Shown: one piece after another, positions 5,790-64,000 of the stretch
Layout: each line of letters opens with the position of its first letter
Position numbering within the stretch: the stretch's first letter is position 1
Assembly (NCBI GenBank): GCA_026770705.1
Contig: JANJGN010000056.1
Coordinates: 1,302,001-1,366,000 of the forward strand
Direction: 5' to 3'
Origin: Isurus oxyrinchus
Lineage: Eukaryota
DNA: 64,000 bases
Made by a program: the position numbers and the translations under genes
The notes under the pieces: model-generated
Database searches by the model: none
What the model saw: only the letters and a program-made list of their open reading frames with translations
What the model was told of the DNA's origin: nothing

Positions 5790-6150
5790 TTATGATGCGA
5801 CAATGATGTGGGCTAGATGGATGAAACAGACAAAAAAAACTTGTTCAAGCAGTCACAACGATTTGGCAATATGTATTTATTTCGAGATGCATGCCCTAAA
5901 TTGAGGGGTTATAAGCCCATAAATTTTTCGGTAAACTAAATTAAGCATGCAATAACAACAGTTAGGATTAAAAGCAAATGCATAGGTCTACAAATTAACA
6001 CACTAATAAATCCTAAAACGCCTAATTAATTTGGCTTCCATTTACACCCTCGTTAAGGCAACAGTAAAACAAGAAACACATTCCGCCTAGTCACACATCA
6101 CCCTGGACAGAATAATTCAAAGTGGCGTTTTTCACATAAAATAATATCAC
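5790..6150 (-). mobile_element. Probable LTR of the adjacent Gypsy element (internally deleted); contains the left boundary of the tandem array
   Basis: Non-coding AT-rich block directly 5' (minus strand) of gag. The same sequence recurs at 29040 and 56940 with ~470 bp more. Termini are not clearly resolved. Confidence 0.45.
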
Positions 6151-7014
6151 GAGAAATATTAGATATTCGGTAAAATATGGTTCAAATGGATTTCTAAAAT
6201 ACATAACATCAAGCCCTCAAGGAGGATATTGTTTTCATTACTGGACACAACAATTTTACAATAATTTGAAAGCATTTGGACAGTTGCAGAATAATTTCAC
6301 CACTATCGCTCTAAGGAAGAGAATTATAAATTACTTAGCAAGATCGTAGCAGTTGAAGAGGGAAAGGTTCAACATGGCTCGGTAGGGAGAGAGTTAATAA
6401 ACCTCATGGAGGTTTGAGTTTATTGTAAACAGGGCCGAGTGAACTGGTTTGTAAATGCTCAAAACGAATCGGCAGGTTTGTAGCCCAGGGGCCGCTGACA
6501 GTTCAATAATCCTTGGGGAATGAAATGATGCTCCCTGATTGGGTGAGGTAGGTGTTGATCACCGGGCGGATTTCTCTGATTATGTCAGGCGAATGTCAAC
6601 GAAATACCAAATAGGCTGAGTGAATCGTGGTTCACCTGGTCAATCATTCCGATTGGATGAGGTGGCTTTCAACAATGGGGTGCGTGAATTAATAGAGTGG
6701 TTGTGGAGATGGTGGTTTGGGGTAATGTTTATGAGTCCCTGGGTGAAGCTCCGGCTTGACTGTGCTACCTGTAAGACAGCGGGTGGAGCTCCCGGATTGG
6801 CTGAGTCTCTGAAAAATATGTAGAACCGATACTTCACGACAGTCTTTAACTGCTGTCTGATCATGGACTGACTCACCCCATAAATTAACATCTTTGTGCA
6901 GTAACTTTAATTCATCAGCATAAACTTGGCACGTTAACATATATAGTCAGGAAATCTATAATATACTAATTCACTAATTTTAACATATACGAATGTATAA
7001 GATTCCCCGACCAG

Positions 7015-7437
7015 GAATGTGATTTTGTGCTGGTTAGAATACATTCATACAGGGTGTTGATAATTGAGTGGATTTAGTGCTGGGTAACATATATTCAGCA
7101 GAGTGTTTGATAAGTGAGTGGGCTTACTGCTGGTTAAAATCAATTGAGCAGAGTATCGATAAGTGAATGGGATTTAGAACTGATTAAAATACATTCAACA
7201 GAGTGTTGATAAGTGAATGGGATTTAGAGCTGTTTAAAATACATTCAACAGAGTGTTGATAAGTGAGTAGATTTAGTGCTGCTGAAAATACATTCAGCAG
7301 GTCATTGAGAAGTGAATGAGATTTAGTGCTGTTTAAAATACATTCAGCAGAGTGTTGATAAGTGTGTACTGGTTAAGATACATTCAGCAGATTGGTGCTA
7401 AGTGAATGGGATTTTTTACTGTTTAAAATACATTCAG
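7015..7437. repeat. ~50-bp minisatellite, about 8.5 units
   Basis: Unit cagagtgttgataagtgaatgggatttagagctgtttaaaatacattca(a/g) at 7050, 7099, 7149, 7199, 7249, 7298, 7348 and 7388. Confidence 0.9.
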
Positions 7438-8989
7438 CTGCCATTTCCATGTCCCCCATTCTTAATGCGCAAATCTCATCCACGATGTGACTAACATTTA
7501 GTTCCTCTTTTGTTTCATGTGTGTTTGAAGGCTCTTTAAATGTATGTTGCCACATTTCTTGCCAGGCATGCGCTAATGTCTCCAACCGAATTTTCTTTGG
7601 GAACTGTTTTGCATGTGCCTACATTTTCTCAGTCTTCTGGCCGAATGCTAATCTTGGCTTAATTGTGCACTGTTCCTTTCCAGGTATAAAACGCTTGCCT
7701 TTCTGAGTTAGCCACGGGGACATCACCCTTAATTTAGTTGATGACCATTCCTAGAATAAACTACTTTTTAATTATGGCGTGGGTGAATGGCCCCCACTCT
7801 CTCAGACTTTGCCTATACTCTCAAAGATTTGCAAACCGTTTAATCCTTAAAACCAACTTACTAATTTTCCACACACATCTCAATAATTTAGTCACCATCT
7901 CACTGAGCGTCATCAACAATCTTTGATATAAAGTTCCACGTTGCTGCATCAGGGTTTTATGTGCATTTTAGTGAACTGGCAGCTGAGGCTGCAGAACAGG
8001 TCCTGGGTTGACACAATCACTCATGTTTGTTGGATTGGAGGACACCACCTTTTTCTGAATGTCTGCCTCCCACAGTTTAATTTCTTTCATATCCTGGCCA
8101 TTAGGGCGCTCCCAATTCCATTCAACCCTAACATGTACCTCCTTTATCAGGGAAGAATCGATATGAATTAGCAGCCGATCACGGCACAAGAATACATAAA
8201 GGTCCATTTATTTTTAATGCTTGAAATGATTTAAAGAAAAGGACGGCAACCACCCTCGGATATTCCTCATCGGGAAACTAGAGTCGATTTGAAAGGACAG
8301 ACAGTCACCATTCCCTGCATCATGACAGAGAAAACCGTTCATATCTGATTTTACAGGGATAATCCACGGCTGCCCTCTCCAGAAATCCTCACAAAAGTCA
8401 CCACTGGGACATTAAGGATGACCAGAAAGCGGCACAGAGGACGGCAGCAGCGCGAAAATAATGCGCCCCCTCCCCTCCCCGGTCACTAAAAGCTGGTTAG
8501 CCTGTGATGGTCATTACCGAAGGCCAGTGAAACGCTACCAGGAGACATCATATATGGGATTAGCTCACTTGATGTTCAAAAGGGGGCAGACTGTATTTGA
8601 ATGTAACAGTGATAAATAGTCTGATTTAGTGTCGTTATTCTCCTAACAATGTTATTGTGAAAAAGGGTCCTAGACTGACTGAGAGCAGGGACCGAGTCCA
8701 ACTCGACTGACAGCAAACCCTCAGCTCGAATGTTGCTTTCCAATTTTACCCGATGGCTCTCTGATCGAGCAGAATGATATGTTCAACGTCCCAATAGCAG
8801 CACGGGGTCACGGTTTCGTTTACCTTTCACTGCAGTGAGTCTAGTGACTTTTCCTAAGGCACTTTCAGACAGGTTACCCTTCTGACATTGCACGTTTACT
8901 CGCTGATTACCTTAACTGGGTGATGGATATTTTAAGAAACTATTGTTATGTGGAATACTGTAACTCTATTGCATTCCAATGCAGCATTG

Positions 8990-9450
8990 ACTGATTTCTG
9001 CACTGATGGACTGCCAGTTCTGAATTGTACTGCAATATCTGTGTTTCAGTACTGAGGAGTTGCTGCACCGCCAGAGAGTCAGTACTGAGAGAGCAGGACA
9101 CCGTCAGAAGCATCAATGCTGGAGCAGAGATGAATTACAGGATGGTCGGTACAGGTCAAGTGCTGCATTGTCGAAAGATCTACACTGGAAGTGTGCTGTA
9201 CGTTGAAGACAGGGATAGGGTGAGACAAGTGCTGAGAGAGAGAGAGTGAAAGACAGAGATTTTGAGAAAAAAAAAACAAAAACAAAAATAGAGGTAACAG
9301 GAAGGCGAGATGAAGAGAGAGGGTGAGAGAAAGAGGTGGACAGCACTGATGGAGCGCTGCACTATCGGTGGGTCAGTACGAAATCATGCTTCTCTGTCAA
9401 ATTTCAAACCCGAGGGGGTGCTGCACTCTTGTAAGGTCACCGCTGAGGGA
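8990..9450 (+). repeat. Degenerate ~32-bp tandem repeat (cagtactgagggagtgctgcactgtcggagggt-like); paralog at ~36900-37365
   Basis: Recurrent cagtactga / gtgctgcact / gggtcagtac words at ~32-bp spacing. Resembles, from memory, a DeuSINE-core-like repeat common in shark genomes. Confidence 0.5.
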
Positions 9451-9459
9451 TCATTTCTG

Positions 9460-9925
9460 TTTATTCGTCTCTCCGTCTCTCCCTCTCTTGCTCTTCCTCT
9501 CACCTTCCTGTTATCTCTCATTTTGTTTTTGTTTCTTTCTCAACATCTTTCTGTCTGTCTCTCACTCCTTCTTTGTCCTTCTCTCACTCAATCCCTCTCT
9601 TAACTCCTTTTCACGTCCTCTGCCCTGTCACTCAATTTCTCCCTCTCTCCCATTCTTATTGTACGTCTCCCCCTTTCTCACTGTTGTTCTCTTCCAGCCT
9701 CTAGTTCTCTCTTTATCTCTTTCTCACTCTTTGTCTTTCTGCCGCTCTCCAGCCAGGCATGTTCACCTCTCACTATGCCTCCACCTCTCTCTCTATCAGC
9801 CTTTTTCTCTCCCCCCACTCACACTCTTTCTATCTCTTTTTCAACCTCTCTTTGTCTTTCTCTGTCTGTTAAGTAACCTGCGTCTTTCTCTCCTTCTCTC
9901 TCTATATCAATCTGCATCTCTTTTA
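9460..9925. repeat. CT-rich low-complexity tract; paralog at ~37380-37820
   Basis: Almost purely pyrimidine on the + strand. Confidence 0.85.
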
Positions 9926-10989
9926 GGGAGATCGAGGTCCAGTTGTGCCATCTTGCCCAACACACACACCCCAAATCCCCTGCAACGCCAACCCCTTTCT
10001 GTGCTGCATTGATACCCACTTCCGTTGTAAACACTAGTATTCAGTGGGAGCTGGCATGCTGCACATGCACTGATTTCCACTGTTACCTCGCTTTCACTTT
10101 GTTATCTTACTTGCGTTGTTGGTTACCCGAAATCTACGCTGTGACCACATCTCCTCTGAAGAGACCGCACCACGTTGCACTGTGACATTCCATTTCGGCT
10201 TCCAATCACGTGTTGGAAGGAGGATTCATGTCCAATCACTGAGAAGCAGCGGACAGTTCCACCAGCGATTTTAGAAGTAGGCTATCAGTGGCTTAGTTTT
10301 CTGTTCATTCAGTGCGAGAGAGAAGTATAATGGCCATATTTCGTGGGCAATGGAAGTGTGGAAATGGCTTGAGATGTGTCTCCTGCCCTTCCCGTGTGAG
10401 GGATGGGGACGATGGGCTTTGCAATCGTCCAATGGGATGGGAGAAGTAGGTCAGTGGTGAACATTCAGTGCCTCCTCTCGCCCCCGCACACCCCCACCCT
10501 CCCATCACCATCTTCCCACCCCCGCCGCTGTAAATAAGAGAAAATGCTTTAATTCCAGAACATCATGGTTTCCTTGCTCCCACAGTGAGAGAAATTTTCC
10601 TCCTTTCAAACTGAGCAATGAGCTGATAAAATATTGGAAGCGCTGAGTCATTATGTTCCATTGATAAAGACACCTTGAACGCACTGGACACCCCCATCCT
10701 ACACCCCCTCCCCCGTGCCAGCTGGCAATGTTAAATTCAATGAGAGAATTCATGAAACTCCTAGAATTTAATACTTCCAGATAGTAAACCCACTTCCACC
10801 TCCCAAATATCCCCACCCCATCTCCCAGCCCCATCCTCTGAAAACGTTAAGTTAAATGTTAAAATTCAGGATGTTCGCATTGATTCTTTCTGCCCAGTGA
10901 CAGACCCATATACCCTGCTGAAAATGTGAAATAATGTCCTATAAATGTCAGATATTCAGCTCTTCTAATCATTGAACAAAGTAAAGAAT

Positions 10990-11867
10990 TTAAGCGAAAG
11001 GATATTTCAACATTTTCCACAACTGCTCCCTGAACCTCGTCTGTGTCACAGCATAAATCCAAGTGTTTGTGCAGCAACTAAGGAGCTGCAGCATGAAGCC
11101 CAATTCCAGAACAAAAAAATCTAGATACAGGGAATTATAGCCTAAAGCAGACATCCGGATCCATATGGAAAAAAACATTAGCATTCCCCATAAAACGATG
11201 AAATTGGTTGAAATATAAAAGAGTAACATGATCGATTTCTTTCGATTCTCCACCGCTGGGTCTTTGGGGCTTTGCCCACTCCTGTGAGGCCGGAGTCTCA
11301 TGCGGGCCCTGCTGGTCACTAAAATATACTCTATGGTCAAAATATTGATGAGCAGGATCAGCACAAATGGGACACACGGTGTTAGAATGTGATGGGTGAA
11401 CTCGATTGTTGTCCAGACAGGATTGAACAGAACCTCCTTTCTGTAACCACAAAACCAGGGGAAGTTTACCATCCAGTACTGACCTGTGAACAAAAAATAC
11501 CAGAAAATGTTCTTTGAACAGCTCAGTGCAATGACGGTTCCCAGAATCACAGCTGCCGTTTTCTCACTGCAATATTTAGTTTTCAGCTTCGGGCAACAAA
11601 TGGCCACAAATCGATCCAAGGTAAAAGTGACAGTGAACCACACAGAACAGTCAGTGGCTGCATAAAGCAGGACAGCATGGATATTACACACTGAGATTGA
11701 TCGCAGGAAAGAAAAATACTTATCAAACACAATTGGAATATGCCTCAGTATCAGGTCCAGGATAATGACCAGTAGATCAGCGACTGCCATGGCCTCCAGG
11801 TAACGGGTAACACAATTGGAGAGGCCACACCTCCGGCGCCTGAGTATCACAATCGTGACCAGGTTCA
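10990..11867 (-). CDS. Class A 7TM GPCR, GPR139/GPR142-like family, exon 2 (unit A, ORF intact)
   Basis: Open frame with TM2 MAVADL, Cys at the top of TM3 (VCNIH), DRF motif (FTLDRFVAICCP), TM5 PCVPF and TM7 LSCCTNTWIY. Acceptor cctttccttgcag|TG at 11868/11867; stop TAA at 10992-10990. Confidence 0.92.
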
Positions 11868-12989
11868 CTGCAAGGAAAGGTAATGAATAATAAAACGCTA
11901 TATCACTCTGGTACCAAGGTTGCCAGTAAAATTGAGATGCGATGGAGATGTGTTACAGCAGCCTCCAGTGTAATGAAATGAATGGTCCAGAAACAAGGTA
12001 TAAAAAATGTCTGTGATATAGTGGAAGGCAGGATACATTGAATGGTTAAAATAAGGAGGTGGGAATAAGGTGGAGATGGGAGTTTGCGGGAGAGCGGGAA
12101 TATTTGCGAGACAAAGGAGGAAAGGAGTAATCGGGGATAATAGGTGCGCATAGCGGTGATAACAGCGCATGGAGTGGCGGGCGAGCGTGCCCATTACGTG
12201 TGGTACCCATGGGTGATGGTGGAACTCATGAGTGAGAGGGGAGACGTGTTTGAGTGAGAGCAGCCAGAGGTGATGATTGCGTTCAGGCAAATAAGTGAAA
12301 TGGGGTAATTTTATATTTTGCTCAACATATCTCCTGACAGGAAGGCTCTGCAGTTATGTGATGGAATGTTTCCTCGTCCAAGGATGTTATTTTAGGAATT
12401 TCGAAGAGAGCTTTCTTGCGAATTATCATTTCAAATTAAAGGATAAATGACCATTTCTTACAAAATACGAAATGCAAGTTATAATGATCATGTACACGAC
12501 AAACACTCATACACCCTCACACAAAAATAATAATTTGCAGAAATGCTGCACATACTTAAATTATTACGAGTGTAGAACAGGAACAGCTCATTCCTTAATG
12601 TGCTTAATGTGCTGGTTGTAAACATTGCAGGACTGAGGTGTTCATTCCTCAGCGATTGAAGACAAATGGAGTTTTTAAATATCTGGCTTTTAGTCTACAA
12701 TGTGGTGGAGCCTCTGTGTTGAAGATATGTACCAACATGTACAGCCTATCAGCCTCTTTTAATGCCTGAAATCTTCAAAAATGTCTCTTAAAAATATTAT
12801 TTTGAAGTGTTTCTATTATGAGCAAGAGTCTCCCTGTCCTTCGATCTTGGTGTTGGATTTCCATTCTCCAAACACTAAATTTTACGTTGTGTACAACTTC
12901 AGAAAATGAAGTTATGTTCAAACTGGTTTCTTAGTGGCACAGCTAGACAACCTGTCAAAGGCGAAAGCATCCAGAATATATCTTACCAC

Positions 12990-14000
12990 AATCTCCTCTT
13001 CTCCTGCAGTGTACTCCGGATTCCTGGTGACAATGCCTGTGTCCTTAAGATGGTGATGATATGAAGGATGCAGCAGAACACTATGAACATCAGCACCCGC
13101 TCCAGCGTGTAAGGGAGGGTTCACTCCCAATGGCTCAGGAATGAGAAGCGTTTCTTTCCCACAATGGCGGGCTGATCCACAATGGCCTGTGCGACTCCAT
13201 TACTCTTGGTATTGAGGTGTTATGTTCACCTGCTTTGTTGGAGGTAGGGAATGGCAAAGTTGCATTCTTTTGATCCATGTACCGACGGGGCAGCCTTCAT
13301 CTATGAAAAGCCACTGTGTGCTTCCCTATGGAGCTACGGAGATGCTGGAAACGTCCGACTGCTTCATAATGAAGGTATTGTGGCTCTCGCCAGGATATTG
13401 GATGTTCACCAACGTGATGTACTGTGCATAAATATACATCAAATGGACGTGAATTCAGTCAGAATTCTTTCAGAGCCTTTAACTCTGTCCATTCTAATGG
13501 GGACACGGCAGAATTACGTACACCATTGGAATCCCTCTGCCCTGGGAGGCCATGGGACCGATCATTCTGCTTCTCCCTATTAAGGGAGCAAAAGTACAAA
13601 CGTGGCACCCAACAGAGATGTTCTCTGTCAGCTAATGAATACATAGTTAGACAACATACTGGGAGATAATTAATATAACATCAGCTATTCTCCTGCGTGT
13701 ACTGTTCCGAATCCATAGCACTTTCAATGATCATGTGAACACCGTGTCCAAAGACAGCAGCTCCCTCACCCTGGTGTGCGGCCCCAGGTCCTGTTGAAGG
13801 AGGTGACACGGGTCTGTAGCACCTTATTGTTGTGTCAGAGTTATATCCGTCTCTGAACATGTTTTGGGTGTAGGTTTGTAAAGTGTTCCTGACAATCCAG
13901 GGGTGCTTAGAGCAGTGCAACACCTATCCCCCCAAAAAAAATGTTAACAGACGGTCCCCTCCCTATTCACTCCGCTCATTTCGCTCGTCATGGTACAGGT
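12990..14000 (-). mobile_element. Decayed PIF/Harbinger (HARBI1-like) DDE transposase inside the GPCR intron
   Basis: Minus-strand remnants VNIQYPGESHNTFIMKQS, WLFIDEGCP, KKRF and ERVLMFIVFCCILH match Harbinger motifs (PG-x-x-HD, WLLGDxGYP, KxRFxxL, IVxCCxLHN). Confidence 0.75.
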
Positions 14001-14144
14001 CCAGGTGCACTGTAACTACATCCCCAAAACCTCTTCCAAGGTTGGGCCTATAGATACTCTATCCTCTCTCAATTCATGCAGCCCTTCACAGCACAGCACC
14101 AAGGAGACCATCTAAAGCACTTCAATGGACTTTGAAATAACAGT

Positions 14145-14282
14145 GATTAAAAAAAACAACTGCAGATGCTGGAAATCCAAAAAGTTCTGTCGAAGGGTCA
14201 TGAGGACTCGAAATGTCAACTCTTTTCTTCTCCGCCGATGCTACCAGAACTGCTGAGTTTTTCCAGGTAATTCTGCTTTTGT
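14145..14282. mobile_element. Short Penelope-like terminal fragment with internal inversion, flanked by a 14-bp direct repeat
   Basis: tttgaaataacagt at 14131-14144 and 14283-14296. The first ~38 bp match the PLE end at 34832 directly; the rest matches it in reverse complement. Confidence 0.85.
14183..14221 (+). ncRNA. Minimal type I hammerhead ribozyme motif (PLE-associated)
   Basis: AGTT-CTGTCGA-A-GGGTC-atgag-GACTC-GAAA-TG-TC-AACT: stem I AGTT/AACT, stem II GGGTC/GACTC, GUC site. Stem III has a C-to-T change. Confidence 0.65.
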
Positions 14283-15077
14283 TTTGAAATAACAGTAGTC
14301 CGTCAAATTCCGTTCAGCTGACAGTCAGATGTCTGGCCCGTTTCAATTAAACTGGAAAGGGTGCCTCGTGTTTTTTAACAAATATTTAGCTGAGAGTGAT
14401 TAACACAGCTTTTTGGTGGACGGGTACAGCCAGTGTTTCAAAGGCATGCATCAAACATGCTGAAAACCCCCGGACAACACGGGACACCATGTGTGAGTTT
14501 CTGGACATGGGATTGATTGGAGAAGCGAGATGAAATTGTGATCAAATCACCCGATTGGGAATTTTGAAATTGACGGACTGAAAGACCTGGCAGCAATCTT
14601 GGCCCTTGAGCACAGGGATAATGGTGGAATGAGATTTGGCATGGGCAAGTTTACAAAGATTAGAGTTTTGTATGGGGTATGTTTTAAGAACGTTTGTAGC
14701 AGCAATTGTCTGGCCAGATTAACATTTTAATAGCCGAGTCTGGCTTGGACAAATGCACAGCTGAGGGATCATTCGGGTGATGTGTTGATGCAGCGAGGAT
14801 AGTGGGTGAGACTAAATAGCTGGTAGAAGACAGGCTTAAGGATAGAAAAGGTGAGGGCTCACAAATCAGCTCAGGGCAAAATGGAGCATGGGAGTCGAAG
14901 ACACTATGGTTCAGGCTTAGATAGTAGTGCGGTAGGCGGGTGGAGCGACTGGATATGGAACGATCATTAAAACGGGAACAGTAGCAAATGACTTCCATCT
15001 TCCTGAAATGTAAGAGACAGTAACAGTAATACAGTCAATCTGGTTTAAGGAACAGATTGTTGCATATAGGTTCTTAC

Positions 15078-15273
15078 CGCTGACACCAACAAGAGCCAGG
15101 ATGGGGAAGTAACCAACTTGGATTAACGAAATTACTCCCTCGATCCTAACAGCTAATGATATCCGATCTTGAGAAAGGTAGTAAAGCCCCGAGGATAAAC
15201 TCCTGTCCATTTTTGTAAAATTCCAAGATTTTGTTCTAAGATTCTGATTCATTGTTGTCACGTTCCAATCCAT
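15078..15273 (-). CDS. GPCR exon 1 (N-terminus and first half of TM1), unit A
   Basis: ATG at 15273; MDWNVTT...IQVGYFPILALVGVS, then G|gtaag donor at 15078/15077. The phase-1 donor joins exon 2 as GTG (Val) and completes TM1 (ALVGVSVNLVTIVIL). Total 196+878 nt = 357 aa; intron 3210 bp. Two N-glycosylation sequons (NVT, NFT). Confidence 0.88.
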
Positions 15274-15386
15274 TATTCTCAGGCTCTGATGTTTTCTCTC
15301 CCCCTCTCAGGAGTCGTTGATCCTTGCGACTGCTGAATGCGACTGTCCCCCTGACATTAGGGGACAGCACTTTGAAATGAGCCCCG

Positions 15387-15394
15387 TATAAATA
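15387..15394 (-). promoter_or_regulatory. Possible TATA-like element (TATTTATA on -, TATAAATA on +); paralog at 43280-43287
   Basis: About 115 bp upstream of the GPCR ATG. Motif and position only. Confidence 0.3.
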
Positions 15395-15849
15395 GCACTG
15401 TGAAACCCTCCAGTGACACAATTAGGATCCAGGGAGATTGAAGTTAATTACAGGGACTGAACAAATCGGTTCAGTTAACGCCTTGGATTCCAACAATTTT
15501 TGTCTCACAACATAGTAGAAGATTTACTTGGCGTGGATCGGATGTATGTGGGTCGCTAAGGGATGGAAGGCTGCGAATAGAGGTTTGACTGACCATGACA
15601 TGTAAAGGCACCTGGGAATGATATCCGAGGACAGGAGGGTTTTAATTGTTCCACGCTATTTATAAAAGCAGAGTTCCAAAGCAGAATGGAACCTGGATTG
15701 ATGACCTATTTTGAAAAATCATTTATTTTGGAAGCGTGGGTTCCTTACTGAAGGAGGTTCACAGGAGCCTGATTTGACTTTGCAAGATTCACAAAAAAGA
15801 TGTAATTAATCATGATCATATTACACCAGGCAACCAAACGCTTGGTAAG

Positions 15850-18800: not shown

Positions 18801-19700
18801 TGGGCGTCCCTTAGAAATACCAATCGAAGGACTCTATCACAAAAATGGACCATCATTGACAATATACTTTAATCGTCATCTGTAAAGTTGGATTTCATTT
18901 TGCTAAAGTTCCTTATAACTGTGAATAAAACGCTGAAGGCTGAAAATAGTTTTTCCCTCTCCCAAACTTTTCATTTTTTATTTGAATATCTGTGACATAA
19001 AATATGAGCCTTGATCTGATTAATTTTCCTGAGGAAATCCACATATTTTAAAGAAATGAACTCGCTTTCCCCCTATAATTTTCACCATTATCTTCCTGAA
19101 ATGCACTGCCACTGGAAATCTTGTTAGAGCTACCATAATTTTTGAAACACACTGTTTCCCACTTCTGATTTAGCTGGGGGTCCAAAACAATCTATTAAGG
19201 AAGTGCTAAATGGTTCTGTACAAGCTGGTATTGGACTGAATAAAGGATGCACTTGAATTGATGATTCTGGCTTCCCCACTATTAGCATGTATGTCATGTC
19301 TGGCAGAAACTAACAACGCCTTTATGAAACCGTGGGAAAAAAATATGTTTCAGCATGTTAGCCTGTGTTTGGAACACCGTAAGCAACTCGTGATGGAACG
19401 TCCACCAGATGAACTATTGTAAAGTGCCGATTGGCTCATATTTGAGGTGGTCTCCCTTTCCTCATTAGCAGAGCATTGTTAAATAATAACACTCAGGTAC
19501 TGATTCTGATTCAGGCTCTGATAGGGTGTTATAGCATATTCTCTCAACTGAGGATCAGCCTGTTGCATTTCTACTAAAGTAGATGGACCAAAATGTCATG
19601 CCTATTCTAATTACATTCTTCAGTTTGCTCCAGTTCCTTCTAAGGCTTCCTTTTTTTGCGGGGCTGAGATCTAGTCATGAAGCAGTCAAGAAACAACCCA
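15850..19700 (-). mobile_element. Decayed Gmr1-like Gypsy element: integrase, RT, RNase H, PPT, 3' LTR
   Basis: Minus-strand remnants: MQQADPQL / ESESVPECYY / LMRK (~19460-19600, pre-integrase); FMSFGMKNA (~17560, RT); FEWTK..AF, KPFKL..DAS and GIERPV (~17000-17190, RT-RH linker and RNase H). Purine tract gagaggaga followed by TG at 16591-16581. Confidence 0.8.
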
Positions 19701-19879
19701 GGATATTGCTCAAATCGCGCCTCAGCTACTTTCAGTTCCAGTTGGTGTTATAACAGTCTCGGTGAGGCTAATATATTTGAGCCAGCTGTCTCATAGCCCA
19801 AGATGTAATCAATTCCTTAGATAGCGATTTGATCCAAAGCTCCAACTGCAGCCTCTACTCTCACTAAGTGACTTATTTT

Positions 19880-23126: not shown

Positions 23127-23163
<37 letters not shown>

Positions 23164-23766: not shown

Positions 23767-23797
<31 letters not shown>

Positions 23798-27460: not shown

Positions 27461-27474
27461 ATTTGGTTCATTCA

Positions 27475-32418: not shown

Positions 32419-32427
32419 TTTTAGAGA

Positions 32428-47720: not shown

Positions 47721-47927
47721 AGCCATGAAGCAGTCAAGAAACAACCCAGGATATTGCTCAAATCGCGCCTCAGCTACTTTCCGTTCCACTTGGTGTTATA
47801 ACAGTCTCGGTGAGGCTAATGTATTTGAACCAGCTGTCTCATAGCCCAAGATGAAATCAATTCGTTATTTAGTGATTTGATCCAAAGCTCCAACTGCAGC
47901 CTCTCCTCTCACTAACTGACTTATTTT

Positions 47928-52359: not shown

Positions 52360-53229
52360 TATGTTGAAATAATTGGGGTGAAGAGATGTTGCAGCATATT
52401 CTTAAATGCTCCATGAACTTAGCCTGCTCTCTCTGTAAATCCCAGTGTTTGTGCAGCACCCAGGAGCTGCAGCATGAAGCCTAATTCCTGAACAAAAGCA
52501 TAGAGATACATAGACTTATAGCACAAATTCCACATCAGTCTCCAAATAGAAGAAACAATTGACATTGAACATAACAGGAAGAAATTGGCTGAGACATCAG
52601 ACAGAAAATTCATAGATTTCCTTCTACTCACCATCTATGGATCGCCGGGATTATCCCACTTCTGTGAGCCTGCAATCCCCTGTGTTCTCTGCTTTACATT
52701 AAAATCTGCTTTACCATGAAAACATTGAGCAGCAGAATCAGGGTAAATGGAAAGCACGATGTTAGAATATGTTGGAGGAACTCAATTGCTACCCAGAACA
52801 GAGATTCGTGGATATCCCATGTGAAATCCCTGAAACCAGGGGGCGTTCATCAGCCGATATTCAACTGTTATCATAATATACGAGAAAATGTTATTTGAAC
52901 AGCTCAGCACAATCAATGTTCCCAGAAGCACAGTGGCTATTTTCTCACTGCAATATTCAGTTTTCAGCTTCAGGGAACAACGGGCCACAAATCCCTCAAA
53001 GGTCAAAGTGACGGTGAAACAGACAGGACAGTCTGTGGCTGCATAAAGCAAGACGGTGTGGATATTACACACGTGGATGGAGTTCCAGAAGTAAAACTGT
53101 TCCTTAAACAAGAATGGAATGTGCCTTATTATCACATCAGGGATAACGACCATTCGTCAGCCACAGCCATGGCCACCAGGTACTGACCACATCTGTTGCT
53201 CCTGAGGATCACAATCATGACAAAGTTCG
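52360..53229 (-). pseudogene. Degraded paralogous GPCR exon 2 (unit B)
   Basis: Same frameshift after AVAD as unit A, plus an 18-bp deletion near 53186. ORF pieces 52782-53153 and 52419-52634 (SANFFLL...QELGFMLQLL). Confidence 0.9.
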
Positions 53230-54479
53230 CTGCCTGGACGGGAAATAAACAATTAGATCATACATCAGGCTGAGTCGAAGCAAATCGTTTAATTGAGGAG
53301 TTTTTGTATGTGTTATTGTAGCCTGTAATATATTGTGAGAAATGAACCTGAAATAACAAATGGGAAGGTTTGCGATCGAGTTGTAGGAAGCCGAGAAAAA
53401 CAGCAAAAGCTGAAGGGATGGAGGAAGTGGATGCAGGATTATCGCGGGCGCTAGAGGCGATGAGGGTACAAAGGATGAATGTTGGGCCCAGGGGACCACA
53501 GGGGGATTTTGTTGGAGATCGGAAAAGTCAGGAGTGATTGAAACGTAACTTTGAAACCCAATGCTAACGGAGGAGCCAGGCAATAATAGGGCGGCCCAGG
53601 GGTGATGGGAGAACTAAGGAACACGTATGATTGGGAAGAACCTGAGGTGATGGTTGTGTTAAGGACAGGGGTGTGATCTGGATGTTTTCCCCATTTCTCT
53701 GCTAACTACAACAGGATGCATTTCTGGGAAGGAGTGTTTAAACATTACAGTGCAGCAGTTTTTAGGAAAAGTGACTAAGTAGTTTTTCTTGTAAAGTTAA
53801 AAAATTAAAGGAAATGATTAAAATGCATTTCTTACGAAGTGTATCGAGATGTCATTCTTCAAAGACATACACATGCAAACGCAAACACACAGACACACAC
53901 GTTAGAAATCTAGGGAACTAGTATACGCTTCGATTATTAGAAGCTTGGAACAGAAACAGGCCCCTTCACTATATTCCTTAAGATGGTACTTGATTTTCTC
54001 CTTTTTGAAGACAAATGGACGTTGCAAAATTATGGTTATTAGTCTAAATTGTAGTTATGAAGAAATATATCAAAAGGTAGAACTTGTTAGCCTCTTTTTA
54101 TCACCAGCTCTGATTCCAAACATTCTGCTTCTTTTTCTTGGATGGGCATATCTTCCTTCAAGTGTTTCTTCCTTTCTGAGAATAACTGACTTCCATATAT
54201 TCAAAAATGATGTCAGCTATTCAATGTTTCCAAAATATATCTGTTGCACAACGTCAGTTGTAAAGATTATTTTTACTAACATAAGCATACTTCCTGACCC
54301 GTGACCATCGAGTTCGATTTCATGTCTCCATACATTAACATTCCCATTACAAGCAAGATGCAAAACCCTCCTCTATCCATCTTCCAGAGAGATGTAATGT
54401 GACCATGACAGGGGAGAAAGGAGAGTGGGTGGGGGAAGTGATGATGAGTGAGAGAGGAGTGCAAAGGGAAAGCCGCGGC

Positions 54480-54550
54480 AAACACACTCACAGAAACACA
54501 CACCGACGCCCATCCCCAGAAAGACACATACATACACACACGCACACACA

Positions 54551-54594
<44 letters not shown>

Positions 54595-54772
54595 CACACA
54601 AACAGAAACACATGTCCGCCTCCAGGNNNNNNNNNNNNNNNNNNNNNNNNNNNNNNNNNNNNNNNNNNNNNNNNNNNNNNNNNNNNNNNNNNNNNNNNNN
54701 NNNNNNNNNNNNNNNNNNNNNNNNNNNNNNNNNNNNNNNNNNNNNNNNNNNNNNNNNNNNNNACACGCACAG

Positions 54773-54823
<51 letters not shown>

Positions 54824-55360
54824 ATCACACACAGACACACACACGCCCGCCTCCAGAAAAACACACACACACACGCACACACACACACATGCGTGTGTAC
54901 ACACTTAGAAGTACAGGCACAAACAAACAAACACTTACATATGAAAATGACACAGAGACACAGCAACAAAGCACATGCACACACAGAAAAAATACACACG
55001 CACACACAAATTCACCCCTATCCACAAACAGAGCGACAAACACAGATACACAGAGAATAAAAGCACAGAGGCTCATGTACTCATCATCTTACTCACTCTT
55101 CCTGTCTCTCTCTATATCGCATAGACACGTATATTCCCATGCTCCACCACACCTCACATACACTCACGTACAGGCCACACTCACATCCACACATACACAC
55201 ACGCACATACACACACACATACACACACACACAAACACATACACAGACACTCACACACACAATCACATACACTGGCACACACTCGCATAGAAGCAAGCAC
55301 ATAGAAAAATACAGACAGGCGCAATCACACACATACGTCATGAAAAACCAAGACACGCAC
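54480..55360. repeat. CA-rich compound microsatellite containing an assembly gap (N 54627-54762)
   Basis: Seen directly; paralogous to 26537-27460. Confidence 0.95.
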
Positions 55361-58300
55361 ATTTGGTTCATTCATGCCCTTTATGGAATGAATTCTGCCA
55401 TCGTAACCTGGTCTCGTTTAACTGTGAATCCAGACATGCTTCAGTGTGGTTGACCTTTTAATGAGCTAATAAATCAATCAGATATGTCAAAGAGCTGAAA
55501 ACCTCAAATAAAGGAATGAAACTGAAAGCCCACACAAATTCGAACTATGCACTGTAAACAACAAAGTAAACTCACCCCTCTCGGCCCTGCAATAACTTCG
55601 TTATTGATATTGGGGCTAAAGTCATAATTGAGAATTAAGTTTTTAGATAAGGTTATTTAACTGAGAGCTTGGTTCATGATGGCGATGAGCTTCGAAATCA
55701 ATAAGAACTATTAATTTGCAAAAGATAAACTGATTGAATCGTTAAGGTAGCGGAACTGCTGTCAATCAAGCAGGGTGCTTTGTCCTAGATTTAGTCAATA
55801 TTGTTGAATGTTATTGGAACATAACTTATCCAGACAAGTGTAGTATTTTCCAATCACACTCTTGATTTGCGCCTTGTAGAAGAGAGACGGGCTAAATGAC
55901 ACGGAGTGTTTGTTGGATAATTATTTATTGTCAATGATCATTGCCTGTCGCTGGTGTAAAGCAAATATAACTTGTCGGTTTTCAGCAGAGGCCTGGGTGT
56001 TGCCCAGGTCCTTTTAGTTACACATAGGCAAAGATTTCTTCAGCATCTGTTGACTCGCAACTTTTGCTTAAGTTTGCGGAAATATGAGTGGATGCTATCC
56101 CCACCCCCCGCTCCCCAAACCCAAACCCTTTCTGAGCACATGATGGAGAGAGATTCAGTGATGAAGTGGATTAAGGTGGTTGCGTCCCGGACTATGACTT
56201 CAGCATCTCCTGCAGTGATATCAAGAGGCTGAGGTGGGTGACTTGCAAAAATAAAAATCCTTTGTGCTCGGCATAACTCCAATCAGTAGAGACTCCCCCC
56301 AGCCCCTTACATGTATTGAATCAAATTTTGCTTGTGTTCCCTGCTAACATAAAATGACAAACGTTGTATTGATATGAAGAACAGTCGCTCTCGCATCACA
56401 TCATGAGTTCAGCACCAATGTCCATGTCTGTATCAAATCTGAACGAAAAGCTGGAGCTCAGACAAAACACATAATGAACGTCAATGAACAGTCTTATCGC
56501 GTAAAGGGCGGTATTTTAGTTGTACTATTACAACGTGGCTAGGAAGGATTTTTCAGGGACACTGATCTCCAATCAAACTGGTGAAATCTGACAGGACCCA
56601 TATCCTCTTGCATCATCCAGCCCCTACAGTTGTTTCTTCATATCACGCTATGTGAATCACATAGGCTGAATTCTGGCGCCTGCGGTGTTGCCATCTTAAG
56701 AACGAGGCCGGAATGTTCCATCTACTCCTCACTTCAACCTGAATGTGGCTGCAAATTTTTTTGCCATTTTTTGGCACTGATGTGCTGAGCTCCACAATCA
56801 TTGCCGATGAGGATATGTGTGGAGTGTCCTTGATCACTCTCCAACAGTAAAGAAACGATTTCAAGTTATCAGAAACGTCGTTTGAGAACAAAGTCAACAT
56901 CCTTTTATACATCAAATGATTGTGTTTATGCTCTCACCAAAGCAGTCACAACGATTTGGCAATATGTATTTATTTCGAGATGTATGCCCTGAATTGAGGG
57001 TTAATAAGCTCATAAAGGTTTCGGTAAACTAAATTAAACATGAAATAACAGCAATTGGGATTAAAAGCAAATGCATAGGTTTACAAATTAACACAATAAT
57101 AAATCCTAAAATGCCTAATTAATTTGGCTTCCATTTACACCCTCGTTAAGGCAACAGTAAAACAAGAAACACATCCCGGCTAGTCACACATCACCCTGGA
57201 CAGAATAATTCAAAGTGGCGTTTTTCACAGCTTGGATTTCAGTTGACAGCAGCCTTATGCTCAAACGATGGGGGCTTTTCCCAATTATGTTAGATTTTTC
57301 ATTGCCTCCTCTAACTGCAAAGTTCCAGATCCTTGTTATATGTTTTTCCCTTTAACTGAAAATTTCATTTTCCCCAAATATCTGTTGAACATTACTTTTT
57401 TCCGTACAGAAACTCATTACATTGTGCTAATGTTATTGTTAACCTTTTTGAAAACAAAATAAATGCACCTCTTTGCTATTCTTCACGGTCTAGGTGTTAC
57501 ATCCTCTATGAAATTCAAACTACCCAGATTTAACTAAAATGCAGACTCTACACATCTCACATTCCAACTCTTCAGCCACGTTTACATATTTTGCATTACA
57601 AAACTTCCTAATTTTGTTGACTCAAGGCCTCCAGACTTAGTAATTTAATTGCTGTCTGCAAGTAACTTAAATCTCACAAACACACTGAAACTATCTAAAA
57701 CCCAATATTAACCTACCTATAAAATAATATCACGAGAAATATTAGATATTCGGTAAAATATGGTTTAAATGGATTTCTAAAATACATAACATCAAGCCCT
57801 CAAGGAGGCTATTGTTTTCATTACTGGACACAACAATTTGCAATAATTTGAAAGCATTTGGACGGTTGCAGAATAATTTCACCACTATCGCTCTAAGGAA
57901 GAGAATTATAAATTAGTTAGCAAGATCGTAGCATTTGAAGAGGGAAAGTTTAAATATGGCTCGCTAGGGAGAGAGTTAATTAACTTCATGGAGGTTTGAG
58001 TTTATTGTAAACAGGGCCGAGTGAATTGGTTTGTAAATGCTCAAAAGGAAAGGACGGGTTTGTAGGCCAGGGGCCACTGACGGTTCAATAGTCCTTGGGG
58101 AATGAGATGGTACTTGACCTGTAATTTGAGTTGAGGGAAGAGTTCCATAGAACACATGCGCAGGAGGTGTTGGTCAATGAGTCTCTAAACACACCCAGGC
58201 GATCAGAATCTGTTAATAAGCCCTTGAGGGTGCTGGGCTTATTAATCCTAGGCGCCAATGGTGGTGGTGGTGGTGGGGGGGGGGGGTGGTGGGGGTGGGG

Positions 58301-60378
58301 CGGTGGAGGGGTCTGTGTGGAGGGGGGTGGTGGGTGGTGGATGGTATGGTTTTGGGTAGCGGGTGGTGGTGGTAAATGAAACTAAGGACCAGGGGGTGGA
58401 TTATTAAATCCCGGGAAGAGGGAACAGGAGTGTGCAGACCCAGATGAAACGTGCAGTGAACACTGCTTAAGAAAGAAAGCAAGAAATGAAAAAGCAAAAA
58501 AGCAAGAAAGAAGAAAGGAAAGAAAGAAAGACAGAAAGAAAGAAAGAAATAAAGAAGAGCAGCAACTTAATTTAGCCATTGGGCCTGTCCCTTGTTTCAA
58601 ACTCAGGAAGAAAATATGGATCAATATATTCAGTTTATGGGAGCATTAACTTAACTGCGCTGGGTTCACGTGTGTTACAAAGAAAACCAGGTAACGGTCG
58701 CTGATTTAGGAATGCTGGTTAGGGGCCCATATTAGTTTTCCACGATGGGATTGTTCTCATGAATAAAAACTGGGAGAGAGGAGGCAGTGTTGTGGACCTT
58801 GTAGAGAGGAAACTATTTGAAAGCTGTGGAAATTGGGGGCTGGATCTTTAATCTCAAGTGAGGGGCTGATAAGTAACAGCGTTGCCTGGGGCTACGGAAA
58901 ATGATGATTTATATCAGTGAGTGGGCGTTCGCTAATGTAGCCTGGTGGTAGGCTGGCGGTAAAAATGGTAACAATAATGGTGACAAACGGGGCGGGGGGG
59001 CGGGCGGCGAGGTGGTGGGTGGGGGTAATAACGCCGGGGAGATGTCACAAGTTATTTAACCCCTGGGCAAGCGTGTGTTTTTATAAATGCATGAAGGAGA
59101 CTTAGATTAGGAAACCCTGGGCAGAGACAGAATCTTAAAAGCCAGCGGCCTGGAAAACAGTTTAATACGCTAAGTGGCGAGGGAACGGTTTATTAAAAAG
59201 TGGGAAGAAAGTGAGGATGGGGGAATTAATTCAACCTGCGGGAATGGTCTCAGATGTGATTCAGGGAGTTTTGATCATGGTTTTCAAGAGGAAATTGGTC
59301 TTGAGCTTGAAAGGGGAATATTTACCGGGCTACAGGGGAAGGGCGGAGGACTGGGACTAGATGTATAACATTTGCAGGCAGCCAATACAGATGTGAAGAG
59401 CTGAATGGCCTTCCTTTCTCTTGTAAACATTCAATGATTTACAGATTAAATTTCCAGTCACAAAATGTTTTACTCGTTCTGCCATTGACAGTAACTGCAT
59501 TTCTATTTCATAACCGAGTTATTTTTCTGTAAAGGTGAGAGTGTCTCTCGCTCTAGTCCCTTTTCAGACAATGCGTTCCAAACTGCAACGAGACATTGCA
59601 TGAAAAAAAGGATTACATTTCAGTGTAACTTTTCCAACAGCTTCATTGAATCTATTTAACCTGGAGATTGGCCTCTGTGCACATGGGAAGATTTTCATAC
59701 CATTCTCTGCCTCTAGGTCCCTCATAATACTTTAACGCTGAGTTATTGGTGGGAGGGTTTTGATGGAGTATATAATGCAGTGCAGACAGAAATCTGAGCT
59801 GTCCATTATTTTTGATTAAATCAGAAAACCATCAACGTATTGGCACCAATTTCCTGAAGGGGAATCTTGAAAAGTTAGTCAGTGGATATCGGATTCATCT
59901 ACAACTATACAACATCGTATGAGCTGCAGACTAAAGATCTGGATCAGTGGGTACATAATTCAGATTCACCTCAGCAACATGCCAAAGACTGCGGACTGGA
60001 GATCTGGACCAATGCGTACAGGATACAAAACTTTCTGCGCAACAACCCATGTACCACTGACTGCATACCTGGACCGATGGAAAGAGGATTGAAGTCCATC
60101 TCCAACCTTGGCTGCTGATTCCAGACTGAAAATCTGGATCAGTGGCTACAGTATTCACGTTCAACCCCACAACATCCCACGCTACACCAGGATGGAGATC
60201 TGGATAAGTAGAGACAAGATTCATATGCCCGTCCAACACATCGCTGCTCATGCAAACTGGAGATCTGTATCAGTGTATACAGGGATTAAATTCATCTCCA
60301 AAATATAATTGTTACTATAGGCTGGAGATCTGGATCAGGGGATACAGAAATTAAATTCATCTCCAAAATTTTTAGAGA

Positions 60379-61055
60379 TAAAATCAATAAACTGTGGAAG
60401 GTGAAAATCCAAAAAGAAGACAGAAATACCTGGAAAAACTCAGCAGGTCTGGCAGCATTGGTGGAGAAGAACAAATTTGACGTTTCAAGTCGTCATGATC
60501 CTTCAACAGTACTGAGTAAAATTAGGAGAGGGGTGAAATATAAGCTGGTTTAATGTTGGGGCGTGGGCACGGTACTGGGTGGGGATGGGGGAGAGATGTG
60601 CGTGCAGGGTGTGGCTGTAGAGACAAGCAAGCAGTAATAGATGCTGATAATCAAAAGCTGTCCCAGTCAAAAGAACAAAGAGGTGTTGAAGGTGGTGACA
60701 TTACCTAAAATAATGTGCTAAGTAAGAATGGATGGTAGGATGCACAAGGTACATATCTAGTGGAGGTGGGATGAAATAAGACTAACAGGGCGTAAAAGGT
60801 ATAGATTTACAAATAATGGAAATAGGTAGAAAAAGAAAAATCTATATAAATTATTGGAAAAAATGGAGGGGGAAGACACAGAACGGGGGTGGGGATGGAG
60901 GAGGGAGTTCAAGATCTAAAGTTGTTGAATTCAGTATTCAGTCTGAAAGGCTGTAAAGTGTCTTATCGGAAGATGAGGTGCTGTTCCTGCAGTTTGCGTT
61001 GAGCTTCACTGGAACAATGCAGAAGGCCAAGGACAGACATGTGGGCAAGAGAGCA
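60379..61055 (-). mobile_element. Older Penelope-like element, unit C paralog
   Basis: Colinear with 32428-33105; decayed hammerhead at ~60475-60513. Confidence 0.85.
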
Positions 61056-62306
61056 CGCAGCATCGTAATTATTCCAGAAATTACAATCTTTGATGCCCTG
61101 CTTTTCAAGCTGCCACCTTGCTCCCTGAAGTCTTGTTGCAGGTCCCCATCACTGTTGGTACTTAGAACGCATATGAACCAATGCATTTGGCTGCTCGCCC
61201 TCCCCATTCAGAATTCCTTGGAGCAGTAAAATGACAGTCTTGACCCTGGTTCCAGAGAACTAACGCACCATCCTAGAGTCACACCTGTGGCCGCTGATAC
61301 GCCTGACTCTGACCTAAACTACTGTTGTTCCTCGCTTTCATCACCCACCAGACTTTGCAGGAATAAACCCTTTCACCATTTTCCAACACAAAGTAACAAT
61401 CCATTCTTAAAAGAGACAGAATCTGTGCCTTTCCTGACTATTTGCTTGTTTCCCTTCTTCTGACTTTGGTCACCCATTCCTTGTCTGAAGCACGACCTTA
61501 AACTGTGTGGTGACTGCATGTAAATAAAAAACACATGCTATCCATATAAGTCTCGGGCACCGGAGTGCACAACTGTGTATCCAGCTGATTGTTGAGCTCC
61601 AAAACCCGGTTCTCAAGCGCGTTGAAATGGTGCCACATTCTGCAGATATGATCATCCATGCAGCCAAGTGTACTTTATCTATGTCAGCCTCTATCTCAGA
61701 CTTGCTGATCAGCTGTAGCGACCAGGAAGCACCGAAAACAGCTTCCTGATTGGGGAAGAAGGCCCCGAGTTACCAAATGAATTCCCAGATTGGCTGTTAC
61801 GTCCATTAGCCATCAAATGTTGCTCCCTGATTGGCTGAGGTAGGTGTCGGTCACCGGGCGGATTTCTCTGATTATGTCAGGCGAATGTCAACGAAATAGC
61901 AAATAGGCTGAGTGAATCGTGGTTCACCTGGTCAAGCATTCCGATTGGATGAGGTGGCTTTCAACAGTGGGGTGCGTGAATTAATAGATTGGTTTTTGAG
62001 ATGGTGGTTTTGGGTAATGTTTGTGAGTCCCTGGGTGAAGCTCCAGCCTGACTGTGCTACCTGTCAGACAGCGGGCGGAGCTCCCGGATTGGCTGAGTCT
62101 CTGAATAATATGTAGATCCGATACTTTACGACAGTCTTTAACTGCTGTCTGATCATGGACTGACTCACCCCATAAATTAACATCTTTGTGCAGTAACTTT
62201 AATTCATCAGCATAAATTTGGCCCGTTAACATATATAGTCAGGATATCTATAGTAAAATAATTCACGAATTTTAACATATGCGAATGGAAAAGATTCCCC
62301 GACGAG

Positions 62307-62677
62307 GAATGTGATTTTGTGCTGGTTAGATACATTCATACAGGGTGTTGATAATTGAGTGGATTTAGTGCTGGGTAACATTTATTCAGCAGAGTGTTTG
62401 ATAAGTGAATGGGTTTACTGCTGGTTAAAATCAATTGAGCAGAGTATCGATAAGTGAATGGGATTTAGAGCTGGTTAAAATACATTCAACAGAGTGTTGA
62501 TAAGTGAGTAGATTTAGTGCTGGTAAAAATACATTCAGCAGATCATTGAGAAGTGAATGAGATTTAGTGCTGTTTAAAATACATTCAGCAGAGTGTTGAT
62601 AATTGTGTACTGGTTAAAATGCATTCAGCAGATTGGTGCTAAGTGAATGGCACTTTCACTGTTTAAAATACATTCAG
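62307..62677. repeat. ~50-bp minisatellite, about 7.5 units (unit C paralog)
   Basis: Same unit as 7015-7437. Confidence 0.9.
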
Positions 62678-64000
62678 CTGCCATTTCCATGTCCCCCATG
62701 CTTAATGCCCAAGTCTCATCCAGGATGTGACTAACATTTAGTTCCTCTTTTGTTTCATGTGTGATTGAAGGCTCTTTTAATGTATGTTGCCACATTTCTT
62801 GCCAGGCATGTGCTAATGTCTCCAACTGAATTTTGTTTGGAAACTGTTTTGCATGTGCCTACATTTTCTCAGCCTTCTGGCCTAATGCCAATCTTGGCTT
62901 AATTGTGCACCGTTCCTTTCCAGGTATAAAACGCGTGCCTTTCTGAGTTAGCCACGGGGACATCACCCTTAATTTAGTTGATGACCATTCCTAGAATAAA
63001 CTACTTTTTAATTATGGCGTGGGTGAATGGCTGCCACTCTCTCAGACTTTGCCTTTACTCTCAAAGATTTGCAAACCGTTTAATCATTAAAACCAATTTA
63101 CTAATTTTCCACACACATCTCAATAATTTAGTCACCATCTCACTGAGCATCATCAACAATCTTTGATATAAAGTTCCATGTTGCTGCATCAGGGTTTCAT
63201 GTGCATTTCACTGAACTGGCAGCTGAGGCTGCAGAACAGATCCTGGGTTGTCACAGTCACTCATGTTTGTTGATTTGGAGGACACCGCATTTTTCTGAAT
63301 GTCTGCCTCCCACATTTTAATTTCTTTCATATCCTGGCCATTAGGGCGCTCCCAATTCCATTCAACCCTAACATGTACCTCATTTATCAGGGAAAAATCG
63401 ATATGAATTAGCAGCCGATCACGGCACAAGAATACATATACGTCCATTTATTTTTAATGCTTGAAATGATTTAAAGAAAAGGACGGCAACCACCCTCGGA
63501 TATTCCTCATCGGGAGACTGGAGTCGATTTGAAAGGACAGACAGTCACCATTCTCTGCATCATGACAGAAGGAAACCGTTCCAAATCTGATTTTACAGGG
63601 ATAATCCACGGCTGCCCTCTCCAGAAATCCTCACAAAAGTCACCATTGGGACATTAAGGATGACCAGAAAGCGGCACAGAGGACGGCAACAGCGCGAAAA
63701 TAAAGCGCCCCCTCCCCTCCCCGGTCACTAAAAGCTGGTTAGCCTGTGATGGTCATTATCGAAGGTCAATGAAATGCTACCGGGAGACATCATATATGGG
63801 ATTAGCTCACTTGATGTTCAAAAGGGGACAGTGATAAGTAGTCTGATTTAGTGTCGTTATTCTCCTGACAATGTTATTGTGAAAAACGGTCCTTGGCTGA
63901 CTGAGAGCAGGGATCGACTCCAACCCGCCTGACATCAAACCCGCAGCTCGAATGTTGCTTTCCAATTTTACCAGATGGCTCTCTGATCGAGCAGAATGAT

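Follow-up and report, generated by a model that had tools for sequence, protein, structure and literature searches.

What kind of receptor family lies behind the repeated G protein-coupled receptor (GPCR) genes in a 64-kb stretch of the genome of the shark Isurus oxyrinchus (assembly GCA_026770705.1, contig JANJGN010000056.1, positions 1,302,001 to 1,366,000; here called the window, with positions counted from its first letter)? A first-pass annotation had described these genes as a cluster of orphan receptors related to GPR139 and GPR142 and had suggested that they may form a sensory or ligand-diversity repertoire. We found nothing unusual in the local array, a segmental duplication in which one gene died recently and several died long ago. 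What is of interest is the family to which the genes belong, which is large, ancient, mislabeled, and apparently unstudied. Judging from sequence data, we put the probability at roughly 55% that this family is a ligand-diversity repertoire, whose members would recognize amino-acid- or peptide-type ligands by means of a shared core and variable flanks.

A large, clustered receptor family in cartilaginous fishes

The two exons of gene A, the intact copy in the window, join into a stop-free frame encoding a class A GPCR of 357 amino acids; a second copy, gene B, is a recent pseudogene. A large protein search with the product of gene A (i.e., the window protein) gave 1,994 candidates, 1,383 of which had E values of ≤1e-5. 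Among the best 120 of these 1,383, 118 were named, all of them shark proteins annotated as "probable" or "putative" GPR139 (53 from the horn shark, 30 from the sevengill, 12 from the whale shark, and 23 from others). Identities to the best 120 relatives were mostly 65 to 72%, and no sequence in the database was closer than 72%. The horn-shark matches had a median mutual identity of 77%, and the 53 sequences fell into 48 groups at 95% identity; as a lower bound derived from the best 120 matches only, this species has at least 48 distinct paralogs. By a hand count, one 94-Mb contig held 9 of the 12 whale-shark matches, and one 143-Mb contig held 11 of the 30 sevengill matches. Together with the decayed copies in the window, these data describe a multigene family that is arranged in clusters, includes pseudogenes, and undergoes turnover.

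At the 50% identity level, a search of the full library returned 107 clusters that had E values of ≤1e-30, many of them partial matches. Looking up 30 of the 150 listed matches added skates, rays, a chimaera, a coelacanth, and salamanders, as well as a teleost, amphioxus, and a snail. Family members were found in several shark orders, skates, rays, and Callorhinchus, which rules out a species-specific expansion. Three Heptranchias entries (P0002, P0003, and P0031) scored far above what their identities would give, which suggests gene models with a repeated receptor segment; they were excluded from the site statistics below.

The automatic names of members varied, including GPR139, capa receptor-like, vasopressin V2-like, and C5a receptor-like, so that members would be dispersed in name-based surveys. 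In RefSeq, the genes are visible under the wrong name "probable GPR139," an annotation that is misleading whatever their function. No description of the expansion surfaced in full-text literature; most subscription papers lie outside that coverage, and absence from print is therefore not shown. The term "GPR139-like" had 0 matches in the same literature. Neither "receptor 139" nor "gpr139" appeared in supplementary files of a nurse-shark spleen paper (one file), a cartilage paper (8 files), and the whale-shark genome paper (PMC8455134; 24 files). A "relative paucity" of GPCRs has been reported for cartilaginous fishes (PMC8455134), and 10 of these species have 20 to 62 complete olfactory receptor genes each, despite many olfactory neurons (PMC10869828). 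The at least 48 distinct members in one horn-shark genome are to be compared with the latter range: if the family consists of chemoreceptors, its size would be at or above that of the whole known olfactory repertoire of cartilaginous fishes.

Relationship to GPR139 and to other receptor families

The exon 2 product matched only the Pfam family 7tm_1 (47.2 bits versus a cutoff of 30.5). Its AlphaFold model (predicted local distance difference test score [pLDDT], 85.4) was a class A bundle, with most of transmembrane helix 1 (TM1), which is encoded in exon 1, lying outside the model; the nearest structures were peptide receptors and GPR139 (TM-scores, 0.62 to 0.75). With generic residue numbers assigned from motif anchors, the micro-switches N1.50, D2.50, DRF, P5.50, W6.48, N7.49, and Y7.53 were present, and P6.50 and P7.50 were absent. 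Human GPR139 was the sole sequence match of the protein in the PDB (30.7 bits) and remained the top match when a 70-sequence profile was used (105.5 versus 80.3 bits for the next receptor).

GPR139 is thus the best solved relative by sequence, and the window protein is not its one-to-one ortholog, nor that of GPR142. The first-pass annotation had set such orthology, with few paralogs, against its own proposal of a divergent and expanded GPR139/142-related orphan family; the former is excluded by the scores (30.7 bits to human GPR139 versus 419 to 553 bits for 120 paralog clusters) and by the horn-shark copy number, and the same figures bear out the latter. The shark family and GPR139/142 have in common the absence of the TM7 proline. 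The shark family differs in its TM3 and extracellular loop 2 (ECL2) cysteines, its DRF, its CGLSKC-type first loop, and its DPEM motif, and most members are without P6.50. Dozens of family copies occur per shark genome, whereas GPR139 has been described as highly conserved across vertebrates (PMC12208981). A CGLSxC motif in the first intracellular loop (residues 14 to 19 of P0001) and a CC pair after TM3 were strongly conserved across the family, and a lipid-attachment or metal site is possible there.

Known chemoreceptors of the OR, TAAR, V1R, and V2R families were rejected as an identity for the window protein, as 7tm_1 was its only Pfam match and none of these families was among the 60 listed of its 244 PDB profile matches. 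The shark family resembles OR, TAAR, V1R/ORA, and V2R/OlfC genes in its clusters, birth-and-death evolution, many pseudogenes, and lineage-specific expansions. Unlike the OR, TAAR, V1R, and V2R genes, it belongs to another sequence family with peptide receptors as PDB neighbors, has an intron in the coding region, and varies in the loops of its main subfamily rather than in the helix pocket. In odorant receptors, the helix pocket is variable among close paralogs. MRGPRs and formyl-peptide receptors are expanded mammalian class A repertoires that arose from non-olfactory peptide-type receptors and act in sensory neurons or immune cells; the likeness is one of pattern only, with no specific kinship among the best PDB matches.

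GPR139 and GPR142 have been grouped with the MIP/sex-peptide receptors (PMC8514136, PMC12208981), and the protostome MIP/sex-peptide, proctolin, and FMRFamide receptors and nematode Srw receptors fall in the same supergroup (PMC8514136). The Srw Pfam family was found on 16 to 69% of the members of some neighboring Atlas clusters. Compared with these receptors, none of which is in our tree, the shark family is an independent vertebrate expansion.

Phylogenetic placement and origin

In a careful tree of 38 sequences rooted with amphioxus, the 20 cartilaginous-fish sequences formed a clade (support, 99/97) that was sister to three salamander genes (100/99). A single-copy GPR139-like group was separate (99/98) and was the nearest outgroup found. 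This tree omits most of the close paralogs and the long sequences P0200, P0193, and P0186, as well as true GPR139 and GPR142 (an amphioxus query for them gave nine proteins, eight of which were named as amphioxus). A kinship of the family with GPR139/142 is suggested by the similarity scores. A quick tree of 81 sequences, for which the careful search was unfinished and long-branch warnings were issued, contained lineage-specific clusters and placed the window genes within a galeomorph shark group.

In salamanders (Pleurodeles, Ambystoma, and Lissotriton; P0248 and P0273 to P0276), one gene forms the sister lineage of the entire cartilaginous-fish family, and the salamander proteins carry the DPE motif and the pattern from TM3 to intracellular loop 2 that typify the family. 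A position of the salamander gene within the single-copy group was opposed by the trees, by profile hidden Markov model (HMM) scores (218 to 247 versus 148 to 178 bits), and by the approximately unbiased (AU) test, which rejected salamander and single-copy sequences as one clade (p-AU, 0.004, for a grouping picked after the trees had been seen). No other bony-vertebrate family member was present among the 30 matches looked up.

The coelacanth match defines the single-copy paralog, which is conserved at about one per species in the coelacanth, sharks, sturgeon, teleosts, amphibians, turtles, and squamates; among the names of its 120 listed matches, birds and mammals were absent (P0244 and P0292 to P0409). 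Sharks keep this paralog separately (66% to the coelacanth). The window protein was excluded from it by the separate clades described above, and its HMM scores were 142 bits for the single-copy profile versus 418 bits for the family profile, which holds close relatives. The single-copy member of the catshark was closer to human GPR139 than the window protein was and reached only 68.8 bits, so that the single-copy paralog, too, is distinct from GPR139. This paralog may correspond to a "GPR210" set (PMC6504862) or to "Orphan 139-like" (PMC5207463). Rinne et al. described GPR210A and GPR210B as non-mammalian GPR139/142-like paralogs (PMC6504862); their passage on these names bony fish only, and the word "shark" is absent from that text. 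The expanded shark family is another clade than the conserved single-copy paralog. Two single-copy paralog models, from the zebra shark and a frog, were named as TMEM183A isoforms, a hint of a conserved neighbor gene.

The salamander sister and the separate single-copy paralog together would date the lineage to the jawed-vertebrate ancestor, and the family, having probably arisen by then, would have expanded in cartilaginous fishes. The family is not lineage specific in the sense first proposed, as it includes members from sharks, skates, rays, and chimaera and its single-gene sister is found in salamanders. That single salamander gene and the single-copy paralog offer starting points for inferring the original role of the GPR139 group.

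Constant pocket and variable outer loops

Site statistics were calculated for 114 close paralogs (i.e., the 118 named matches minus four that were long, tandem-like, or partial), a set chosen by similarity to the query, which lowers its variability. Positions on the G-protein face were nearly fixed (mean entropy, 0.33 bits). Near-fixed residues also lined a polar deep pocket (D2.57, R2.61, H3.28, D3.37, W5.35, E5.39, H5.42, W6.48, R6.59, and E7.36), and 155 columns were conserved at ≥90% across the paralogs. Most of the 30 most variable sites were found in ECL1, ECL2, or ECL3 or toward the extracellular tips of TM6 and TM7.

Within species, extracellular loops varied more than intracellular loops in the horn shark (P = 3e-4) and the sevengill (P = 8e-7), whereas 61 single-copy control sequences had no such contrast (P = 0.34). 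Among 34 independent close pairs, 490 of 1,902 outer positions differed (25.8%), versus about 7% inside and in the helices; the corresponding values for 20 single-copy control pairs were 22, 19, and 12% outside, inside, and in the helices, respectively. The pocket itself was not constant between deep subfamilies: by inspection, its residues differed among 19 distant relatives (17 from cartilaginous fishes and 2 from salamanders), in which D3.37, W5.35, W6.48, and both cysteines, including C3.25, were mostly kept. A constant pocket beneath hypervariable outer loops in the main subfamily fits the repertoire for diverse ligands that had been suggested for the window.

Mutagenesis of GPR139 identified four residues needed for activation by Trp and Phe, namely, F109, H187, W241, and N271 (PMC5430874). 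Three of the four sites correspond in the big shark subfamily, with Y or F at 3.33 in 112 of the 114 paralogs, H at 5.42 in 110, and W at 6.48 in all 114.

Possible functions of the family

A ligand-diversity repertoire, the reading that we favor, could have been built in the following way. New copies arise through the duplication of blocks of about 28 kb, for which unequal crossing-over between repeats is the probable mechanism. The blocks carry live and dead genes alike, and many copies decay. All members retain one signaling face. The deep pocket varies from one subfamily to another, whereas paralogs in the largest subfamily keep the polar pocket and vary the extracellular rim. Receptors of this kind may bind related amino-acid- or peptide-type cues via a shared core and variable flanks, and they would most probably be located in outward-facing cells with a chemosensory or sentinel role.

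Several observations count against this interpretation. In the big subfamily, variability at the classical pocket positions did not exceed that in the remainder of the helices (0.66 versus 0.62 bits; P = 0.54), and pocket hypervariability like that of odorant receptors was not found there. The extracellular loops of GPCRs are often loose, and protein data cannot separate positive selection from relaxation. The fourth GPR139 activation residue, N271, is F in the big subfamily. Between genes A and B, which differ at 23 codons in total, the ratio of nonsynonymous to synonymous rates (dN/dS) was 0.64, indistinguishable from 1 (P = 0.28), positive selection between them was not demonstrated, and the excess of outside changes was not significant (P = 0.10). 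Gene A deviates from the consensus at 12 of the 155 conserved columns (about the top 4% of the family), has a TM2 glutamate found in none of the 114 relatives, and no longer carries the DPEM glutamate, which is kept in 113 of 114. With such lesions at conserved sites, gene A, the sole open gene in the window, may be decaying too. As for the nose, catshark olfactory neurons were all positive for Go and TRPC2 (i.e., microvillous markers), which fits V2R use (PMC10116579), and no GPCR was among the 50 most specific genes of a brain-plus-olfactory-epithelium library (PMC11979771). A list of 50 genes would miss sparse receptors, V2Rs included.

A narrower version of the repertoire reading remains tentative. 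The family would be an unrecognized group of vertebrate chemoreceptors that arose from a GPR139-like peptide receptor in the ancestor of jawed vertebrates, left one gene in salamanders, and expanded in cartilaginous fishes. Its members would detect amino-acid or peptide cues, with sparse expression in sensory cells of the nose, taste organs, or skin.

Somewhat less probable is a repertoire of immune or irritant sentinels in leukocytes, skin, or nociceptors, with loops that would catch diverse microbial or venom peptides or escape pathogen binding, by analogy with MRGPRs or formyl-peptide receptors. The restriction of variation to exposed loops above a constant pocket agrees with this idea, and so do the nose neurons that appear to be of the V2R type (PMC10116579). 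Cartilaginous fishes are reported to be without MAS1 and its relatives (PMC8455134), a role that would then be vacant. The nurse-shark spleen supplement contained no mention of the family, and at 4,750 characters it is too small to inform. If the genes encode sensory or immune receptors, the picture of shark smell or infection detection would be revised.

About equally doubtful is non-adaptive drift in copy number, by which a redundant receptor in unstable, repeat-rich blocks would have multiplied with most copies dead or dispensable and the loops relaxed. The open frame in only one of eight window remnants, the passive copying of dead genes, the dN/dS of A and B, and the nearly invariant pocket of the big subfamily are what drift would leave. 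It accounts poorly for the dozens of full-length paralogs per species with 155 columns at ≥90% conservation, for the occurrence, in sharks, rays, and chimaera alike, of deep subfamilies whose pockets differ, and for a contrast between loops and helices that exceeds the single-copy control.

A role in reproduction, in which sperm or the reproductive tract would sense peptides from semen or from a mate in the manner of the invertebrate sex-peptide/MIP receptor, is improbable. Fast-changing surfaces are typical of reproductive proteins, and the grouping of GPR139/142 with MIP/sex-peptide receptors cited above points the same way; dozens of paralogs would exceed the usual need of such systems.

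Organization of the locus

Self-BLAST of the window revealed a repeat with offsets of 27.9 to 28.0 kb, comprising two periods plus 7 kb (Table 1), in accord with the first-pass description of a ~28-kb unit present at least three times with a partial third copy. Unit 1 is without two blocks of 468 and 3,607 bp. Divergence between the aligned periods was 4.3%, and the three unit copies differed pairwise by 5.3 to 5.7% over 2,425 columns common to all three. Divergence was uneven along the unit (1.3 to 5.6% per kb across 23 bins, after exclusion of four that were short or made up of simple repeats; chi-square P = 7e-10), which suggests mosaic exchange between copies. The cluster had been called tandemly amplifying; a divergence of 4 to 5% documents past block duplication, and ongoing amplification was not demonstrated.

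An assembly gap occupies the matching position in both full units and separates the members of every duplicate pair, so that the tandem order depends on scaffolding, with one copy per contig. Serial scaffolding of haplotypes, to which this gap position would lend itself, is very unlikely to explain the array, since three versions 5.3 to 5.7% apart are too many for alleles of one diploid locus, insertions private to units bear target-site duplications (43373 to 43612, 17200 to 17303, and 34826 to 35692), and the family is multicopy in every well-sampled shark. The versions and private insertions indicate at least two true loci.

Table 1 Features of the window (positions from its first letter)
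Feature	Position	Strand	Details
Inverted 5' fragment of an exon 2	3352..3460	+	AG acceptor kept; 30 bits
Repeat unit 1	5847..29039		23.2 kb; self-BLAST
C-terminal relic (TM7/helix 8), third paralog, unit 1	6814..6996	-	35 bits
Gene A exon 2 (end of TM1 to helix 8)	10990..11867	-	Open; 7tm_1, E = 2.7e-12
Gene A intron	11868..15077	-	3,210 bp; GT-AG; phase 1
Gene A exon 1, coding part (N terminus, most of TM1)	15078..15273	-	GT donor at 15077
Pseudogene P1, exon 2 only	24348..25188	-	Frameshifts and stops; ~28% from A
Assembly gap (N) in CA/TG-rich stretch	26723..26956		Equivalent gap at 54627..54762
Repeat unit 2	29040..56939		27.9 kb; self-BLAST
C-terminal relic, deleted copy, unit 2 (weak)	34104..34217	-	DNA homology; tblastn E = 28
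867-bp insertion	34826..35692		Unit 2 only; GIY-YIG endonuclease match, E = 4.7e-5
Gene B exon 2, recent pseudogene	38878..39755	-	TGA at 39576-39574
Gene B exon 1	42971..43166	-	First ATG changed to ATA; second ATG (43145) intact
240-bp insertion	43373..43612		Unit 2 only; 13-bp target-site duplication; ~200 bp upstream of gene B exon 1
Pseudogene P2, duplicate of P1	52347..53257	-	2.1% from P1
Repeat unit 3	56940..64000		Partial, 7.1 kb; continues beyond window end; self-BLAST
C-terminal relic, unit 3	62109..62264	-	33 bits

Exon 1 of gene A starts with an ATG at 15273, has a second ATG at 15252, and encodes two N-glycosylation sequons. Gene B has the same layout, and its nonsense TGA replaces codon 126, that of the conserved TM3 cysteine. 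The 240-bp insertion lies directly upstream of the TATA-like sequence TATTTATA and exon 1 in gene B only, and it may have altered the expression of that gene.

Pseudogenes P1 and P2 are 27 to 28% divergent from A and B and have four 1-bp indels in common, so that the gene was dead before its block was copied (i.e., one pseudogenization, passively duplicated). No exon 1 for either was found in the window. Further relics were detected with a family profile built from sequences outside the window, for which the best score in a reversed-window control was 2.9 bits. The inverted fragment (approximately 3354 to 3460) lies outside the repeated unit, before position 5847, where the first-pass annotation had begun. 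All five loci that it had listed (one intact, one recently broken, two old pseudogenes, and one inverted fragment) were recovered; the count, however, is eight receptor remnants, one of them with an open frame. Birth-and-death turnover was likewise supported, with fewer independent deaths than copies: the common lesions of P1 and P2 rule out five independent gene fates, and the independent losses in the window probably number about four. A 50-bp tandem repeat (7015 to 7438, 34270 to 34494, and 62307 to 62678, with 8.7, 4.7, and 7.7 copies, respectively) sits at the truncation point of the C-terminal receptor relic in every unit.

Other sequences in the repeat units

Among the 31 scanned of the 44 stop-to-stop open reading frames (ORFs) of ≥95 amino acids in positions 1 to 36000, only the GIY-YIG match passed the cutoff, and an Rfam scan gave 0 matches. 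GC-rich islands (51 to 52%) at 20000 to 22000 and 48000 to 50000 contain several short ORFs, differ by 1.6 to 2.7% between units, and had no convincing Pfam match; they may represent a transposon or, alternatively, a tract that underwent recent conversion. The 240-bp insertion is a putative short interspersed element (SINE)-like sequence, and the 867-bp insertion is a putative Penelope-like retroelement. The latter is about 79% similar to older copies at 32418 to 33105 and 60369 to 61055, which lie within the 3.6-kb block present in units 2 and 3.

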